A DNA stretch of 64,000 bases. It comes from Candidatus Micrarchaeota archaeon. Lineage in GTDB: Archaea; B1Sed10-29; JAJRYS01. Location of the stretch: NCBI GenBank assembly GCA_964496415.1, contig CAZBZN010000001.1:9819-73818 (forward strand). The letters are read 5' to 3'. Below the pieces are notes generated by a model. It worked only from the letters and a program-made list of their open reading frames with translations, did not search any database and was not told the DNA's origin. Made by a program: the position numbers and the translations under genes. This document shows, piece by piece, positions 3,125 through 64,000 of the stretch (position 1 is the first letter of the stretch; each line of letters begins with the position of its first letter).

Positions 3125-3814
3125 ATGAAGTACAGGTCATTAATCATTGCATTAGTGTTAAGTTCAGTTGTTTTAGCATCTTGTCAGGACTATGCAAAAT
3201 TAGCTGAAGAAAGAACACTTCCACCTTATCCTAATTATTTTGGAGCAGCTGGAGAATTTCAGCATGCTGCTGACTGCTATTACTCAATAGGTGAAGAAGC
3301 TTTAGCTAAAGAGTATTACGCAAAAGCAGCAGAGTATTATACTGTTGCGGTTACTCAGTTGGTTGAAGGCGGGGATAATTACTTGAGAGGAAAGAGTTAT
3401 GAGCTTGCCGGTGATTCTTATTACAAGGCAGGAATGATTTCACAAGCAATTCAGGCATATAACAAGTCTTTCACTGTTTTTTCATCAAATGGGTATGATG
3501 CTGAAGCGCAACAGGTAATGAAAAAACTAGAAGCTCTTACTAAAAGAGTTGACCTTTCTCCTTATGTTGGATTGATTTCTTTAACAGCATTATTTTTCAG
3601 CTTGTTTTCTTTAGTTTATGTCTGGAGTTATTCAAGAAAAAACCAGCAGCCGTTAGTAATAGAAAAAAAGATAATTAAAAGAGAAGTAGTTGAAAAACCA
3701 ATAAAAAAGATTGAATTTAAGAAGAAAGAAGAAGTTCCAGTAAAAAAGAGAGAAGTGATGAGTCCTAAAGAAAAGCTTGCTAAGAAGCTTAGGGAAAAAT
3801 ACATGCCTAAGTGA
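3125..3814 (+). CDS. membrane-anchored TPR-like repeat protein (putative lipoprotein)
   Basis: N-terminal signal peptide with LASC (lipobox-like). Tyr/Ala-rich TPR-like repeats. One C-terminal TM helix followed by a K/E-rich tail. Confidence 0.45.
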   Translation: MKYRSLIIALVLSSVVLASCQDYAKLAEERTLPPYPNYFGAAGEFQHAADCYYSIGEEALAKEYYAKAAEYYTVAVTQLVEGGDNYLRGKSYELAGDSYYKAGMISQAIQAYNKSFTVFSSNGYDAEAQQVMKKLEALTKRVDLSPYVGLISLTALFFSLFSLVYVWSYSRKNQQPLVIEKKIIKREVVEKPIKKIEFKKKEEVPVKKREVMSPKEKLAKKLREKYMPK

Positions 3815-5499
3815 GGCTGGTTGCTTTGAATTTTTTTGAAATAAAAAGCCATGACCTGGCTGCTAGGATAACAAAGCTTAAGACAAACCATGGGACAATA
3901 ACTACTCCTACGATTCTTCCAGTCATAAACCCAAAAGCACAGGTTATTCCTGCTTCTGAAATGAAAGAGTTCGGAGTAGAAGCAGTGATTACTAATGCGT
4001 ACATTCTTTGGAAGGACTTAAGAGAAGAAGCATTAGATAAAGGCGTGCATGATTTGATAGGGTTTAACGGTCCAGTGATGACTGACTCTGGAGCTTACCA
4101 GTTAATGGAGTACGGCGAGATAAGCGTAAGCAATAGGGAAGTAATCGACTTCCAGAAGAAGATAGGTGTTGATGTTGGAGTAATTCTCGACGTTCCAACA
4201 AGCAGCAGCGACGAAGAAGCAGTGAAAGCAAGCGTTGCAGAGACCATTACACGCGCAAAGGAAGCAAAGCAATGGGCTGATGATTCTCTTTTGTGGGCTG
4301 GGCCTGTGCAAGGCGGGACTAACTTAAAGCTGTTGAAGAAGTCTGCGATGGTCATGGATTCTCTTGGATATGACATCCTGCCAATTGGTTCTGTTGTTCC
4401 TTTGCTTGTGAAGTATGATTTCGCTTCAGTCGTGAGGATGATTAAGACAGTAAGAGAAACCACTGAAAAGCCTTTGCATTTGTTCGGCGCAGGTCATCCT
4501 ATGTTCTTTTCTTTTGCAGTAGCTCTTGGAATTGACTTGTTTGACTCAGCTGCTTATGCTTTGTATGCTAAGGAAGGAAGGTACTTGACTCCTCTTGGCA
4601 CGAAACACTTGTCAGAACTTAAAGAACTCCCTTGCTCCTGTCCAGTATGTTCTAACACTCCTTTAAAAGAAATGGACGAGGAGAAGCTTGCAAGGCATAA
4701 TCTTTTCGTAACAATGCAGGAGATAAGAACTGTAAGACAAGCTATAAGAGAAGGGGAATTGTTTGACTTGTTGTGCCAGAGAGCTGCTTCCCATCCTTCT
4801 CTTTACAAGGCAATGAAACAACTTGTCAAATACAAGGATTTCTTTGACAAAAGAGACCCCATTACTAAGAAGCACTTCTTTTACTCCTCTGAGTTTTCAA
4901 AGCACAGGGTAGAAGTAATAAGAGTCAAGGAAAGGCTTTCAAGAATAAAGTCAAAGCAAAAGCAAGACATAGGACTGTTCAAACAAGTTCCAATAACACT
5001 AACAGAATGCTATCCTTTCACTCAGTATGTTGACGGGGAGGAGAGAAAGCTGAAAAAAGCTCCAAATGGTTTTGAGAAGATAAGAGACGCAAGCTTGTAC
5101 TGGTTTGGAGTGAATTTGTTCAAGCCAACGGACACTGTAAAAGTGTCAAGAAGCACTGGGAAGATAAGAGCAGTGTACAGGAAAGGAGAGTTGTTAGCTG
5201 TTTTCAGAGCATCAGACTTTATGATAATGCTTCATGCTGCTTCAAGAGACCTGCATGAAAAAACAAGACCACCCGAACATAGAGTGATAGTAAGAAAAGA
5301 CGTTGCTGAATTCATCAAGCAAGGGAAGAGCGTGTTCGCAAAACATGTTATTAACTGTGGTAACATAGTGCCAGGCCAACAAGTACTGGTAGTCACAGAA
5401 GACGACGAGCTTTTAGCATCAGGAGACGCTTTGCTTAACTCTTCTGAAATGCTTGCAATGAAAAAAGGCCCTGCAGTAAGCGTGAGATGGCATGCGTAA
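3811..5499 (+). CDS. tgtA: archaeosine tRNA-guanine transglycosylase (ArcTGT) with C-terminal PUA domain
   Basis: N-terminus has the TGT fold (HGTITTPTILPVINP). Zn site CSCPVCS. About 560 aa with C-terminal PUA-like beta domains. Confidence 0.9.
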   Translation: MRLVALNFFEIKSHDLAARITKLKTNHGTITTPTILPVINPKAQVIPASEMKEFGVEAVITNAYILWKDLREEALDKGVHDLIGFNGPVMTDSGAYQLMEYGEISVSNREVIDFQKKIGVDVGVILDVPTSSSDEEAVKASVAETITRAKEAKQWADDSLLWAGPVQGGTNLKLLKKSAMVMDSLGYDILPIGSVVPLLVKYDFASVVRMIKTVRETTEKPLHLFGAGHPMFFSFAVALGIDLFDSAAYALYAKEGRYLTPLGTKHLSELKELPCSCPVCSNTPLKEMDEEKLARHNLFVTMQEIRTVRQAIREGELFDLLCQRAASHPSLYKAMKQLVKYKDFFDKRDPITKKHFFYSSEFSKHRVEVIRVKERLSRIKSKQKQDIGLFKQVPITLTECYPFTQYVDGEERKLKKAPNGFEKIRDASLYWFGVNLFKPTDTVKVSRSTGKIRAVYRKGELLAVFRASDFMIMLHAASRDLHEKTRPPEHRVIVRKDVAEFIKQGKSVFAKHVINCGNIVPGQQVLVVTEDDELLASGDALLNSSEMLAMKKGPAVSVRWHA

Positions 5500-11833: not shown

Positions 11834-11847
11834 TTTTATCCCTCTTT

Positions 11848-11895
11848 AACGCGTCAGGCACGGGCTTGTTTGGACCCGTCCTCTTCCCGCGTTTT
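11848..11895. ncRNA. GC-rich nested hairpin in the bud32-S15 intergenic region (S15 5' leader)
   Basis: aacgcg...cgcgtt forms an outer stem that encloses acggg/cccgt. It stands out as GC-rich in a 30% GC background. There is no oligo-T on either strand. Confidence 0.3.
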
Positions 11896-11975
11896 GAACT
11901 TAATTAGAAACAACCCTATTTAAAGGGTAGAATTGTAGTGTTATTTTATTATTTGGGGTTTATAAAAGCTTCGTT

Positions 11976-27626: not shown

Positions 27627-27661
27627 AATACCACTCAGTATTTTTAGTCGCTTGTTGCTTT

Positions 27662-27701
27662 CAGGCGATTGAGAACCACGTTAGTGGTTCGATGTCGCCT
27701 G
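27662..27701. repeat. HP element copy A (extended hairpin, L18e leader)
   Basis: caggcga-ttgagaaccacgttagtggttcgatg-tcgcctg. Outer 7-bp stem, internal loop, inner 7-bp stem gaaccac/gtggttc, GTTA loop. The outer stem differs from the other copies by compensatory changes. Confidence 0.6.
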
Positions 27702-27723
27702 CCCGCAAGCCGTATGCGGCTCT

Positions 27724-27762
27724 AGGGGATTGAGAACCACGTTAGTGGTTCGAACATCCCCT
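27724..27762. repeat. HP element copy B
   Basis: aggggattgagaaccacgttagtggttcgaacatcccct. Identical to the copies at 30277 and 63719. Confidence 0.6.
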
Positions 27763-27785
27763 GTCCGTAAACCGCACGCGGTTTA

Positions 27786-27923
27786 TGCAGGGGACGAGAT
27801 TTGAACTCGCGTGGGCACTAAGCCACAGGGCCCTCAACCCTGCCCGTTTTCCGGGAGGCCCCGCCTCTTATTACTTTTATTAACAGGAGGCAGGGGCCAC
27901 CGTCCAGGCTCCGGCACCCCTGC
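27786..27923 (-). tRNA. tRNA-Leu(GAG) with ~51-nt intron in the D-loop
   Basis: Minus strand. Acceptor GCAGGGG/CCCCTGC with A73. Anticodon arm CAGGG-TTGAGGG-CCCTG. 15-nt variable arm. T-arm GCGAG-TTCAAAT-CTCGT. It is collinear with the intron-less Leu(TAA) at 63802, apart from a GC-rich insertion between GCCTGGA and AAAACGG. Confidence 0.7.
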
Positions 27924-27990
27924 GTAGTTTTCATAGCATAGGGGTTGCGGGGAAGCTTTGCTTACCCAAGTACCCCTGCATAGTAATCCA

Positions 27991-28557
27991 TTATAACTGT
28001 TTTTCAAGCTCTTCAGCTTTTTCTTTTAATATTTCTACTGCTTTTTTAAGCAGTTCTTTTGGTTCAAGGTTTCCAAATGATTCTATTTCAAAGTCAAAGT
28101 TGTTTTCATTGGTTTTATGAACATTATATGATGCAATGCATGGTTGGAATTTAGCATGCTGTTTTCCAGTTCCCATTATTGCTGTGGCTTCAAGTCTTAG
28201 GTTTTGTTCTTCTCCTAACTTTATTATTGGTATGTTGTCATACACTGGCTTTACGTTTGATTTTGTTTTTAAGTCTTTTGAATAGACCACTGTTGGCCCT
28301 TTTGCTTCAAGGTGAAATGTGGCTTTTGATTTTGAGGTTGCTGTTTTAGGAGTTACGAGGGGGATTAGCCCAAGTCTATGAGCTATGAACTCGTCAAAAA
28401 GGTTTGAAGTGTTTTCAAAAAAGTCCACTTCATCTATTGCCATTATTGGTACTTCTGACATTAATGCCCTTCTAAGTGCGTTTGCTTTTGGGTACGAAGC
28501 TTCTTTTAAAGTGAATTTCAAGTAATTCCCATCAACTTTTAAGTTCTCTATTTTCAT
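27991..28557 (-). CDS. rpoD: DNA-directed RNA polymerase subunit D (Rpb3-like)
   Basis: 188 aa with an Rpb3/AC40 dimerisation fold. Conserved position after S11. Confidence 0.8.
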   Translation of the reverse strand: MKIENLKVDGNYLKFTLKEASYPKANALRRALMSEVPIMAIDEVDFFENTSNLFDEFIAHRLGLIPLVTPKTATSKSKATFHLEAKGPTVVYSKDLKTKSNVKPVYDNIPIIKLGEEQNLRLEATAIMGTGKQHAKFQPCIASYNVHKTNENNFDFEIESFGNLEPKELLKKAVEILKEKAEELEKQL

Positions 28558-30091: not shown

Positions 30092-30226
30092 TCATTCACC
30101 AGAATTTTTTATTTCCCTGTAGGTCACAGCCTTAGCGGCTCGCCAGGATTTGGTTTTTTATAACAAGTGTTATGATTTGTGAACTCTTTTGTTTATAAAC
30201 CTTATGGAAACAGCCGCACCACTGGG

Positions 30227-30275
30227 TTGAGGTCCGTAGGACCGAAGTCCTGTAAATGCAGGCTTTTTGAAGCCT
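30227..30275. repeat. E element (inverted copy), a hairpin-rich module in the S13 leader
   Basis: Reverse complement of 63638-63689, with a compensatory change gcaggctt/aagcctgc versus gcaagctt/aagcttgc. Confidence 0.5.
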
Positions 30276-30276
30276 T

Positions 30277-30315
30277 AGGGGATTGAGAACCACGTTAGTG
30301 GTTCGAACATCCCCT
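30277..30315. repeat. HP element copy C
   Basis: aggggattgagaaccacgttagtggttcgaacatcccct, 3' of the tRNA at 30340-30507. Confidence 0.6.
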
Positions 30316-30339
30316 GTCCGTAAACCGCACGCGGTTTAA

Positions 30340-30507
30340 CGCGGCGGGGGAGATTCGAACTCCCGTGCCCCGAAGGGCACCAGCTCTCCAGGCTCACCTC
30401 ACTTTGTTTAAGTTCACTTTTTAAGCAAAGTGAACTGGCGCAATACCATTGCACCCACAAGGGTGCAAACCAAATGGCTTGCCATTTGTGGTCTATGCGA
30501 CCGCCGC
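30340..30507 (-). tRNA. intron-containing pre-tRNA, most likely tRNA-Ser(GGA) with two introns (D-loop and anticodon stem)
   Basis: 168 nt, GC-rich. Acceptor GCGGCGG/CCGCCGC with G73. T-arm GGGAG-TTCGAAT-CTCCC. A class II variable arm TGCCC-TTCG-GGGCA. Joining ...GCGCCAG to CCTGGAGAGCTGG gives the stem CCAGC/GCTGG around the loop CTGGAGA. A D-stem GCA/TGC is separated by about 50 nt of hairpins. Confidence 0.45.
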
Positions 30508-48310: not shown

Positions 48311-49738
48311 TCATCCTTTAATACAGCCTATTGGTCTTACTCTTACTACTTTTTTAGCTAACCCGGCATTGTGCACTGCGTCAACTACTTCTGCTACGTC
48401 CTTGTAAGCTTCAGGAGCTTCTTCAGCTACTCCTGCGTAAGAATGTGCTTTAACTATGATTCCTTTTTCCCTTAGTCTGCGGATTATTTCCTCTCCTCTC
48501 CAGGAATGTTTTGCTTTTGTCCTGCTCATTCTTCTTCCACCGCCATGGCAAGCGCTTCCAAAAGTCTTACTGGTTCCGGTTTCTGTTCCAACTAATATGT
48601 AAGAGTATGTTCCCATGCTTCCTCCTATGAGTACTGGTTGTCCTACTTCCATGTAATCTTTTGGCAATTCTTTCCTGCCAGGACCAAAAGCTCTAGTAGC
48701 TCCTTTTCTATGAACATAAAGTTTTCTCTTCTCCCCGTCAACGTCATGCTCTTCTATCTTGCACGTGTTATGTGAGATATCATAAAGTGTTTCCACTTTT
48801 GCTTCTGGAAGTACTTTTTCAAAAGCAGTCCTTGCCAAGTGAGCTATTACTTGCCTGTTCGCTAACGCGCAGTTTATTCCAGCATTCATTGCACCCCAGT
48901 AATCCTGTCCTTCTTTTGATTTTATAGGAGCACATACGAGTTCCCTGTCCCTTATAGGAATCCCGTACTTTTTTGAAGCCTGCGCAAGGATTGGAAGGTA
49001 ATCCATTCCTATCTGATGCCCAAGAGCTCTTGAACCACAGTGAAATGATATTAAGACATCTCCTTTTTCCACTTTGAACACTTTTGCTGTTTTTTCATCA
49101 AACACTTCATCAACTACTTGAATTTCTAAGTAGTGGTTTCCTGAACCAAGAGTCCCTACTTGCTTGTACTGCCTTTTTTTTGCTTTGTGTGATACTTTTG
49201 AAGCATCAGCTCCGTCAACTCTGCCGAATTCTTCTATGAATTCAAGGTCTCTTTTTGTCCCATACCCTTGTTCAACAGCCCAAACAGCTCCTCCTTCTAG
49301 CACTTCATCAATTCCCTGTTCAGTTAGCTTTATTTCACCAGTGCTTCCAAGACCAGCAGGTACTGTTCTAAACAATTCGTTTACTACCTCCTCTATTTTT
49401 TCCTTTACTTGTTCTTCTTTCAGGCCAGTCCTCATTGTTCTTACTCCGCAAGAAATGTCAAACCCTACTCCTCCTACTGAAAGTATTCCTTCATCTTCGT
49501 CAAAAGCACCTACTCCTCCTATTGGGAAACCGTACCCCCAGTGAGCGTCAGGCATTGCCATTGCTGCTTTAACAATGCCTGGAAGGCTTGCCACGTTCAT
49601 GAGTTGTTCTCTTACTTTTTCATCCATTTCTGTAACTAGTTTCTCGTCAGCGTAAATCCTTGCAGGAACATTCATTTCACCAGTTTTTTCAATTTCCCAT
49701 TCATAGTCACTTATCTTTTTCAAAGCTTTAATATCCAC
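48311..49738 (-). CDS. rtcB: RNA-splicing ligase RtcB
   Basis: GSACHGGGRRMSR...and metal-binding His motifs. 475 aa. Confidence 0.9.
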   Translation of the reverse strand: MDIKALKKISDYEWEIEKTGEMNVPARIYADEKLVTEMDEKVREQLMNVASLPGIVKAAMAMPDAHWGYGFPIGGVGAFDEDEGILSVGGVGFDISCGVRTMRTGLKEEQVKEKIEEVVNELFRTVPAGLGSTGEIKLTEQGIDEVLEGGAVWAVEQGYGTKRDLEFIEEFGRVDGADASKVSHKAKKRQYKQVGTLGSGNHYLEIQVVDEVFDEKTAKVFKVEKGDVLISFHCGSRALGHQIGMDYLPILAQASKKYGIPIRDRELVCAPIKSKEGQDYWGAMNAGINCALANRQVIAHLARTAFEKVLPEAKVETLYDISHNTCKIEEHDVDGEKRKLYVHRKGATRAFGPGRKELPKDYMEVGQPVLIGGSMGTYSYILVGTETGTSKTFGSACHGGGRRMSRTKAKHSWRGEEIIRRLREKGIIVKAHSYAGVAEEAPEAYKDVAEVVDAVHNAGLAKKVVRVRPIGCIKG

Positions 49739-49757: not shown

Positions 49758-50174
49758 TCATACGTCAACAATGCATTGAGCAATCCAATGATCATTTGTT
49801 TTCTCAACTTTTACCTGTGAGTAAGTGGCTGCTTTTACTTCTGTCTTAGGATGGTGCTTTTCAGGGTTAAATTCTTCTCCGAGAGCGATAGCGGTTAGTT
49901 TGTTATCGTTTATGGTTACTTTAAAATCTTTGAAGACAATTCCTTCTAAGTCCATTTCTGTAAGCAGCTCGTTGAGGAATGATACGAGAAGACTTTCAAG
50001 GTCTGTTGACTCGCAGGTTATTTTTATTTCTTTGCAGGGGGTTATGTTTTCTAAGTCAAACATTATTGAAAACATTGCCTTGGCACATTCAGTAAAAGCT
50101 TCTTCAACTGTTTTTCCAATTCCTCTTACTCCTATGTCAGCAGTGTGTTCAAAAGTTTCGAACAACTTACTCAC
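49758..50174 (-). CDS. archease (RtcB activator)
   Basis: FEHTADIGVRGIGKT...EVKAATYS is the archease signature. Located upstream of rtcB. Confidence 0.85.
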   Translation of the reverse strand: MSKLFETFEHTADIGVRGIGKTVEEAFTECAKAMFSIMFDLENITPCKEIKITCESTDLESLLVSFLNELLTEMDLEGIVFKDFKVTINDNKLTAIALGEEFNPEKHHPKTEVKAATYSQVKVEKTNDHWIAQCIVDV

Positions 50175-63511: not shown

Positions 63512-63639
63512 CGCCCCAGCCGGGATTTGAACCCGGGTCTCGGCCTCGACAGGGCCGAATCCTAGACCAATCTTCCACCTTTCTCAAGTTTTCTTTGGTG
63601 CAGCTTTCTTCTTAAGAAAGGTGCCTAGACTACCGGGGC
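63512..63639 (-). tRNA. tRNA-Asp(GTC) with ~55-nt AT-rich intron in the D-arm
   Basis: Minus strand. Acceptor GCCCCGG/CTGGGGC with G73. Anticodon arm CGGCC-CTGTCGA-GGCCG. T-arm CCGGG-TTCAAAT-CCCGG. The D region is interrupted by gcacctttcttaagaagaaagctgcaccaaagaaaacttgagaaaggtggaagattg, flanked by GTCTAG direct repeats. Confidence 0.65.
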
Positions 63640-63689
63640 AAGCTTCAAAAAGCTTGCATTTACAGGACTTCGGTCCTAACGGACCTCAA
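63638..63689. repeat. E element (direct copy), a hairpin-rich module at the tRNA-Asp 5' flank
   Basis: gcaagcttcaaaaagcttgc plus aggacttcggtcct, with an alternative pairing ggtcctaacggacc. It is the reverse complement of 30227-30275. Confidence 0.5.
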
Positions 63690-63718
63690 TCCAGTATCCG
63701 TGAGCCGTATGAGGCTCT

Positions 63719-63757
63719 AGGGGATTGAGAACCACGTTAGTGGTTCGAACATCCCCT
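63719..63757. repeat. HP element copy D
   Basis: aggggattgagaaccacgttagtggttcgaacatcccct, 3' of tRNA-Leu(TAA) after two GC hairpins. Confidence 0.6.
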
Positions 63758-63801
63758 GTCTGCCAGCTGCACGCAGCTGTCCGCAAGCCGCGCGCGGCTT
63801 A

Positions 63802-63886
63802 TGCAGGGGAAGGGATTTGAACCCTCGTAGGCACTAAGCCACAGGATCTTAAGTCCTGCCCGTTTTCCAGGCTCCGGCACCCCTGC
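63802..63886 (-). tRNA. tRNA-Leu(TAA), intron-less
   Basis: Minus strand: GCAGGGG-TG-CCGG-AGCCTGGAAAA-ACGG-G-CAGGA-CTTAAGA-TCCTG-TGGCTTAGTGCCTAC-GAGGG-TTCAAAT-CCCTT-CCCCTGC-A. Class II cloverleaf. Confidence 0.8.
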
Positions 63887-63946
63887 GTAGTTTTCATAGC
63901 ATAGGGGTGCCGGGAGAGCTATGCTTGCCCGAGCACCCCTTTGAAG

Positions 63947-64000
63947 TCCCGCCGGGGAGATTCGAACTCCCGATCCCCCGGTGACAGCACCCTTTTGCTG
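63947..64000 (-). tRNA. partial tRNA-like 3' portion truncated by window edge
   Basis: Minus strand ...GGGAG-TTCGAAT-CTCCC-CGGCGGG-A. The 5' part lies beyond 64000, so identity is unresolved. Confidence 0.35.

Follow-up and report, generated by a model that had tools for sequence, protein, structure and literature searches.

A tRNA-Leu(GAG) gene of a Micrarchaeota-like archaeon with a probable D-loop intron of the relaxed HBh' type

The minus strand at positions 27786-27923 of the window, by which we mean the whole 64-kb stretch of DNA analysed, carries a tRNA-Leu(GAG) gene with a precursor of 138 nt and no encoded CCA. Its letters run GCAGGGGTGCCGGAGCCTGGA[...]AAAACGGGCAGGGTTGAGGGCCCTG...CCCCTGCA, in full from 27923 to 27786 GCAGGGGUGCCGGAGCCUGGACGGUGGCCCCUGCCUCCUGUUAAUAAAAGUAAUAAGAGGCGGGGCCUCCCGGAAAACGGGCAGGGUUGAGGGCCCUGUGGCUUAGUGCCCACGCGAGUUCAAAUCUCGUCCCCUGCA. 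It is flanked by rpoD (27991-28557) on one side and by L18e-L13-S9-RpoN on the other, within the archaeal S13-S4-S11-RpoD cluster. The best matches of RpoD are almost all from Micrarchaeota, at 57-63% identity, and the best genome locus belongs to an unclassified 'archaeon'. These matches suggest a divergent, Micrarchaeota-like member of the DPANN as host, in agreement with the original prediction, which had named some DPANN among the few lineages with D-loop introns.

When tRNA-Leu(GAG) is aligned with the intron-less tRNA-Leu(UAA) of the same window, the sole gap comprises 53 columns and falls in the D-loop. On the unspliced gene ARAGORN gave a distorted 82-nt Leu(gag) call (27786-27867) with intron bases serving as acceptor strand, and the general Rfam tRNA model, due to the 53-nt insert, gave no match even at E<=10. 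A clade-specific covariance model made from 26 intron-less Micrarchaeota tRNA-Leu orthologues aligned all 138 nt to model positions 1-86, its full length, with 84.3 bits (E=8e-17), compared to 91.9 bits for tRNA-Leu(UAA). Thus, failure of a covariance model to place a tRNA here, which had been named as grounds for abandoning the prediction, occurs with the general model only, and the clade model finds the gene by means of a local insertion. The alignment to this model puts GGAC on the consensus GGuc, followed by 55 nt against three D-loop positions. After splicing in silico, the resulting 85 nt gave a clean cloverleaf for Leu(gag) in ARAGORN. Being contiguous and collinear, the exons make up neither a split nor a permuted tRNA gene, and the insert sequence occurs only once in the window. 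A group I or group II self-splicing intron was rejected, since the insert has only 53 nt versus a catalytic core of >200 nt and no Rfam intron family matched it. The features of the locus and of the other tRNA genes are collected in the table.

Table. Coordinates of the tRNA genes, predicted introns, flanking elements and processing genes (window positions unless a related locus is named).
Feature	Position	Strand	Basis or remark
5' exon of tRNA-Leu(GAG), precursor nt 1-22, ending ...GCCUGGAC	27902-27923	(-)	HBh' motif, L131 D-arm, covariance model
Predicted 53-nt intron GGUGGCCCCUGCCUCCUGUUAAUAAAAGUAAUAAGAGGCGGGGCCUCCCGGAA	27849-27901	(-)	HBh' motif; ARAGORN cloverleaf after removal
3' exon of tRNA-Leu(GAG), precursor nt 76-138, starting AACGGGCAGGG	27786-27848	(-)	HBh' motif, L131, ARAGORN
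Predicted H, exon strand CUGG, nt 17-20	27904-27907	(-)	2 nt upstream of 5' splice site
Predicted H, intron strand CCGG, nt 70-73	27851-27854	(-)	2 nt upstream of 3' splice site
Predicted h', intron hairpin	27855-27900	(-)	MFE fold and constrained fold
tRNA-Leu(UAA), intron-less comparison gene	63802-63886	(-)	ARAGORN, Rfam, clade covariance model
tRNA-Ser(GGA)	30340-30507	(-)	two non-canonical introns; spliced in silico a clean 82-nt cloverleaf
tRNA-Ser(GGA) intron 1, 44 nt, D-loop 15/16	30449-30492	(-)	strict hBHBh': H GCAU/GUGC, h=3, h'=6
tRNA-Ser(GGA) intron 2, 42 nt, anticodon stem 30/31	30393-30434	(-)	H CGCC/GGUG, h'=8
tRNA-Asp(GUC)	63512-63639	(-)	52-nt D-loop intron
tRNA-Asp(GUC) intron	63572-63623	(-)	H UCUA/UGGA, 4-nt 5' bulge GG↓CA, 3-nt 3' bulge AG↓A, h=3
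tRNA-Tyr(GUA), 3' part in window (C1-G72)	63947-64000	(-)	37/38 insert placed by hand
tRNA-Thr(UGU), upstream of window end	L139 478-625		approximate D-loop insert and strict 37/38 intron
21-nt leader common to both Leu genes	27924-27944, 63887-63907	(-)	
Upstream hairpin GCAGGGGU...ACCCC(UA)UGC	27936-27979, 63899-63940	(-)	outer stem copies tRNA-Leu acceptor stem
tRNA-Leu(GAG) 3' trailer	27661-27785	(-)	21-nt hairpin plus RCGG alternating with ~41-nt hairpin element
21-nt modules	27765-27785, 27703-27723, 30318-30338, 63781-63801, 63760-63780, 63700-63720	(-)	
21-nt module in L003	L003:4771-4791		first element of the 171-nt tRNA-Leu(GAG) T-loop intron
~41-nt hairpin of tRNA trailers	27724-27764, 27661-27702, 30277-30317, 63719-63759	(-)	
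RtcB ligase	48311-49738	(-)	Pfam E=6e-173
Archease	49758-50174	(-)	Pfam E=1e-47

For the placement of the splice sites we used a BHB rule derived on relatives for which the intron-less consensus gives the mature sequence (L-numbers are our labels for related loci, and ↓ marks a cut). According to this rule H is formed by two runs of 4 nt, of which one stops 2 nt short of the 5' site and the other 2 nt short of the 3' site; every bulge is on the 3' side of its own H strand, and the cut follows bulge nucleotide 2. The rule recovers the consensus in three cases: a T-loop intron in L004, whose H is GGGU/GCCC and whose bulges are UC↓A and AA↓A, a D-loop intron in L016 with H GGUC/GGCC, and a 171-nt T-loop intron in L003 with H UUCA/UGAG and an h of 5 bp. 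With one mismatch allowed in h', the sole candidate in tRNA-Leu(GAG) has a 5' exon of 22 nt and a 3' exon starting at nt 76, which predicts the layout ...GCCUGGAC ↓ GGUGG...CCCGGAA ↓ AACGGG.... Splicing would then join ...GCCUGGAC to AACGGGCAGG... in an 85-nt tRNA with the D-loop GGAC^AACGG (GAGCCUGGACAA). Helix H consists of three Watson-Crick pairs and one GU pair (C17-G73, U18.G72, G19-C71, G20-C70) and is separated by the predicted 5' bulge, A21 C22 ↓ G23, from helix h' (G24-C69, the mismatch U25xU68, GGCCCC/GGGGCC, the bulged U32, GCCUC/GAGGC and UGUUA/UAAUA). The predicted 3' site, A74 A75 ↓ A76, falls within a 4x4 internal loop, where G13-C16 face A74-A77; this loop adjoins a 3-bp D-stem (C10-G80, C11-G79, G12-C78).

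This motif has several flaws, namely the G.U pair in H, the UxU mismatch in h' adjoining the bulge, the absence of helix h, and a 3' site that is not in a bulge. Of the 3-nt bulge, 4-bp helix and 3-nt bulge that the original prediction proposed to look for at the junctions, the predicted fold has the 5' bulge and the 4-bp H but not the 3' bulge. The strict canonical hBHBh' class was rejected on the D-loop position in place of the usual 37/38, the lack of h and the 3' site in the 4x4 internal loop, and a strict 3-4-3 scan of the precursor returned nonsensical junctions only and no strict motif. Likewise rejected was a D-stem strand as H (CCGG 10-13 x CCGG 70-73, or UGCC x GGCG), which would remove G18G19 or A14. 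Because the closing helix h is missing, the insert belongs to the relaxed HBh' class; it interrupts a complete tRNA and has a 4-bp H and at least one 3-nt bulge with a splice site flanked by h'. A relaxed scan that counted only uninterrupted flanking helices ranked the motif low, and it was recognised by analogy to L016 and L083. In the MFE fold of the precursor (z=-3.9 for the whole precursor) the hairpin GGCCCC-U-GCCUC.../...GAGGC-GGGGCC is present, and the intron ends pair with both D-stem strands instead of forming H. The conformer with cloverleaf and H reaches -68.5 kcal/mol versus -71.1 for the MFE, a gap of 2.6 kcal/mol, and ViennaRNA favours a 2-nt over a 3-nt 5' bulge. After randomisation of the junction-proximal intron bases, a motif giving an 84-86 nt product with UGG kept arose in 3% of trials; the 4-bp helix by itself arises by chance in ~3-9% and is weak statistical evidence.

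Comparative support for the junction comes from three to four related sequences. The closest relative recovered, L131 (GCA_013425355.1, JACCLE010000068.1; RpoD 60-63% identical), has an uninterrupted D-arm that reads GCCGGAGCCUGGACAACGGG, the exact product of cuts at C22↓G23 and A75↓A76. The original prediction had placed an insert of ~51 nt, quoted as a string of 52 nt, between GCCUGGA and AAAACGG and had taken the hairpin GGCCCCUGCCUCC/GGAGGCGGGGCC with its bulged U as the BHB-like signal. This GC-rich hairpin does exist in the MFE fold, and the resulting 86-nt product is also accepted by ARAGORN. However, a continuous hairpin with one bulged U lacks the pair of bulges and the 4-bp spacer, it would leave the splice sites 4-6 nt outside, and no helix H can form with these junctions. 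The product GGAAAAACGG would have one extra A compared to any relative; L131 reads exactly GGACAACGG, and the clade covariance model aligns GGAC as exon. Therefore, this placement of the cuts is very unlikely: the hairpin corresponds to the distal helix h', H is formed by exon CUGG and intron CCGG, and the predicted junction GGAC/AACGG differs from the earlier one by 1-2 nt. The D-loop insert as such stands, with the motif-defined intron shifted and 53 nt long.

In two further relatives, L003 and L134, the same D-loop site is occupied by a 33-nt intron without recognisable similarity to the intron in the window. Their H uses the same exon strand (C17-G, U18-A, G19.U) with a mismatch of G20 x A beside the bulge, and some canonical introns of the phylum, such as those of L022, L033 and L042, are also mismatched at the H position beside the bulge. 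Splicing at this site would yield GGAA^AACGG. Two pairs of helix h' differ between L003 and L134 in a compensatory manner (A-U to G-C, C-G to U-A), and the L003 motif appears already in the unconstrained MFE; a mirror-image 'BHB' in the L003 intron (AUUC/GAAU, AGU bulge) was rejected for its wrong handedness. D-loop introns with H on exon GG also occur in tRNA-Leu(GAG) of other DPANN/Micrarchaeota, namely L016, L083, L113, L115, L116, L122 and L125, again in the slot between rpoD and L18e, but these use H = GGUC/GGCY, are cut 2 nt further 3' (GGUCAA↓A) and have unrelated intron sequences.

Our survey covered 80 related rpoD loci fetched from 185,579 species-representative genomes, and in 70 of them tRNA-Leu(GAG) follows directly 3' of rpoD. 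The gene is intron-less in 39 of the 80 loci and has a canonical 37/38 intron alone in 25; seven have a T-loop intron, two of these together with a 37/38 intron, five have a D-arm intron (L003, L005, L016, L046, L061), and in the remaining four the gene is absent or the contig cut. Thus, in the phylum as a whole (L003, L131, L004/L007/L008/L011/L018/L015/L024, L016) this gene has introns at four or more sites, and in many Micrarchaeota it carries a T-loop intron of 19-171 nt with a strict BHB. A metagenome scan with an anticodon-arm pattern returned 48 loci, all from more distant DPANN or other archaea, and the intron of the window was in none of them. For the RpoD homologues P0004, P0006 and P0007 the contig stops at rpoD, or the gap between rpoD and L18e holds no tRNA.

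Taken together, the alignment with tRNA-Leu(UAA), the clade covariance model and the motif argue that the gene very probably encodes a functional tRNA-Leu(GAG) with a 53-nt protein-spliced BHB-type intron in the D-loop, at Sprinzl position ~20a/21. This agrees with the non-canonical D-loop intron originally proposed. We judge it improbable that a palindromic or mobile GC-rich hairpin has inactivated the tRNA, with another gene supplying Leu(GAG) or UAG decoding. Such a pseudogene would be in line with the imperfect splice motif and with lineage-specific GC-rich hairpin modules scattered around the tRNA genes of this genome, of which our view is a 64-kb window. On the other hand, both exons are intact, and their 84 bits compare well with the 92 bits of a functional orthologue. 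The insert contains the very nucleotides that H needs, and its removal gives the L131 D-loop. In addition, the syntenic slot of rpoD and tRNA-Leu(GAG) is conserved and the window has no second copy of the insert. A pseudogene is further disfavoured because interruption is the norm among the tRNA genes seen here: the Ser, Asp, Thr and Tyr genes are interrupted as well, two of the Ser/Thr introns with strict BHB, so that five of six genes are affected, four of them in the D-loop. This pattern fits the one known for the lineage.

Both tRNA-Ser(GGA) and tRNA-Asp(GUC) were missed by ARAGORN and Rfam. The tRNA-Tyr(GUA) gene is whole in the near-identical strain L139 (970-1085), where a strict BHB scan gave no motif at the hand-placed 37/38 junction. 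Recovery of tRNA-Leu(GAG), tRNA-Ser(GGA) and tRNA-Asp(GUC) despite misses or mis-calls by standard finders affects assessments of genome completeness and codon tables in DPANN. The window also encodes an archaeosine tRNA-guanine transglycosylase with TGT and PUA domains at 3811-5499 (+). In tRNA-Ser and tRNA-Asp the D-loop splice sites are 1-2 nt away from its target G15, and archaeosine modification therefore presumably takes place after splicing.

Based on the motif, we propose the following route, in which splicing and the exact cut sites are predicted. The tRNA body of the precursor would fold, and exon CUGG (C17-U-G18-G19) would pair with CCGG near the intron 3' end to give the 4-bp helix H. 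This would place the 5' splice site (C↓G) in the 3-nt bulge ACG between H and h', and the 3' splice site (A↓A) 2 nt 3' of H, in the 4x4 internal loop beside the 3-bp D-stem. A broad-specificity EndA, likely of the epsilon2 or the loop-bearing DPANN type, would cut both sites, RtcB and archease would join the exons to the 85-nt tRNA, and CCA would be added, none being encoded. Cleavage by EndA leaves 2',3'-cyclic phosphate and 5'-OH ends, which RtcB ligates. RtcB and archease, seen in the original prediction as fitting an intron of this kind, are indeed both encoded in the window, but they are known to be near-universal in Archaea and therefore give no specific support. No gene for the splicing endonuclease lies within the 64-kb window. 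With no helix h and a 3' site that no closed bulge holds, the relaxed motif should be beyond a strict alpha4 or alpha'2 EndA and would require a broad-specificity endonuclease, as had been anticipated. HBh' and hBH motifs are cleaved only by (alpha-beta)2 and epsilon2 EndAs (PMC5829648), to which loop-bearing DPANN alpha4 EndAs possibly have to be added. The epsilon2 EndA was discovered in Micrarchaeum ARMAN-2, where it cleaves relaxed BHB motifs and 56% of the tRNA genes are disrupted (PMC3239211). Least probable of all is splicing at other sites of the same relaxed structure, for example in a register with a 4-nt bulge, H = (U)GGA/UCC(C) and cuts after G23 and G73, which scores similarly in the relaxed scan, resembles the 4-nt 5' bulge of the tRNA-Asp intron and would be tolerated by broad-specificity EndAs, which accept relaxed BHB with bulges of 1-4 nt (PMC3239211), but which needs a U x C mismatch in H and gives a 15-nt D-loop (GGACG^AAAACGG) that is present in no relative and does not reproduce the L131 D-arm.

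The putative HBh' intron cut at C22 and A75 is thus of a kind already described for the Micrarchaeota lineage. D-loop HBh' introns are known from tRNA-Glu of M. kandleri and tRNA-Thr of A. pernix (PMC5829648). These introns, from Methanopyri and Crenarchaeota, share with the present one the short length without ORF, a relaxed BHB composed of one proper bulge, H and h', the need for a broad-specificity EndA, and exon joining by RtcB (PMC5829648, PMC3241643). They differ in lineage, here DPANN, in the tRNA and in the position, here ~20a/21, and cleavage is inferred in our case. Candidatus Micrarchaeum acidiphilum ARMAN-2 belongs to the same lineage at the phylum level, and many of its tRNA genes are interrupted non-canonically, some by multiple introns, with relaxed motifs that its own epsilon2 EndA cuts in vitro (PMC3239211, PMC3488258). 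While the introns highlighted in ARMAN-2 are in the T-loop (53/54, 59/60) and at 37/38, four of the six tRNA genes considered here have theirs in the D-loop; the RpoD of the window, moreover, is only 57-63% identical to that of the Micrarchaeota MAGs found. Thermoproteales likewise have many non-canonical positions and relaxed motifs, and a rapid accumulation of multi-intron tRNAs (PMC4033280), but they belong to TACK and use the (alpha-beta)2 EndA, and their intron sequences are unrelated to those of the window. Our current understanding of archaeal tRNA splicing is not changed by the tRNA-Leu(GAG) intron. It does provide a well-anchored case of such a D-loop HBh' intron from Micrarchaeota, with the junction fixed by an intron-less orthologue and an unrelated intron at the same site in sister lineages, and is as such useful for studies on intron gain and loss and on the substrate range of EndA. 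For Thermoproteales, Fujishima and colleagues are said to have proposed in 2010 that tRNA introns are gained at recurrent sites.

The surroundings of the tRNA genes are structured as well. The 5' leader that the original prediction saw in both Leu genes is a 21-nt sequence, CCCCTATGCTATGAAAACTAC, with exactly two matches in the window, each immediately 5' of a Leu gene, and none expected by chance. The likeness of Leu(GAG) and Leu(UAA) goes beyond this leader to whole cassettes. Hairpins equivalent to the upstream hairpin occur at L003:4602-4645 and L134:~880-925, preceded there by a second copy of the leader, as if in a tRNA slot. Across these four sequences, three of the 12 predicted pairs have double changes. 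The 21-nt modules, located in the trailers of Leu(GAG), Leu(UAA) and Ser(GGA), have a hairpin stem of 6 bp, a loop of 4 nt (CGUG/CAUA/CGCG) and RCRG as the 3' tail. Six distinct sequences, five from the Leu trailers of the window and one from L003, show double changes in three of six pairs; the first Leu(GAG) copy is repeated identically after Ser(GGA). The ~41-nt hairpin, ACAGGGGAU-GUUC-GAACCAC-UAAC-GUGGUUC-UCA-AUCCCCU, is identical in three of its four copies; in the fourth, a G:C pair of the acceptor-like outer stem has become C:G, a compensated change. The outer stems of both this and the upstream hairpin copy the tRNA-Leu acceptor stem GCAGGGG/CCCCUGC. Rfam has no family for the flanking hairpins, and neither 130 related loci nor viral contigs contain the core of the 41-nt element.

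These modules might be the sole part of the locus that leads somewhere new. They could represent operon processing punctuation, mobile palindromic modules or decayed tRNA-Leu fragments, and there is a small chance that the GC-rich modules framing the tRNA genes, namely the 21-nt hairpins with RCRG, the 41-nt hairpin and the upstream minihelix, constitute a new family of tRNA-linked structured elements. In that case, tRNA-like minihelices could serve as RNase P/Z 'punctuation' that frees the tRNA and the r-protein mRNA from an rpoD-tRNA-L18e transcript. Alternatively, mobile hairpin modules could also populate tRNA introns and feed intron gain at recurrent sites such as the D-loop site of tRNA-Leu(GAG). 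A different element, GCUUCAAAAAGC-UGCAUUUACAGGACUUCGGUCCUA(A)CGGACCUCAAYCCAGU, follows tRNA-Ser(GGA) at 30195-30275 (-), and its reverse complement lies just upstream of tRNA-Asp at 63641-63699 (-).

Further hairpins were noticed near ribosomal protein genes. One is located upstream of the S13 gene at 30115-30146 (-), GGCGAGCCG-CUAA-GGCUGUGACCUACAG, and is conserved in L131 (~1820-1856) as GGCGAGCCC-UUUUC-GGGCGGUGACCUUCAG, with a covarying stem; it may be an r-protein operon leader. The S15 gene has in its 5' region, at 11838-11901 (-), the GC-rich hairpin ACGCGGGAAGAGGACGGGUCCAAACAAGCCCGUGCCUGACGCGU, which may be a regulatory leader.
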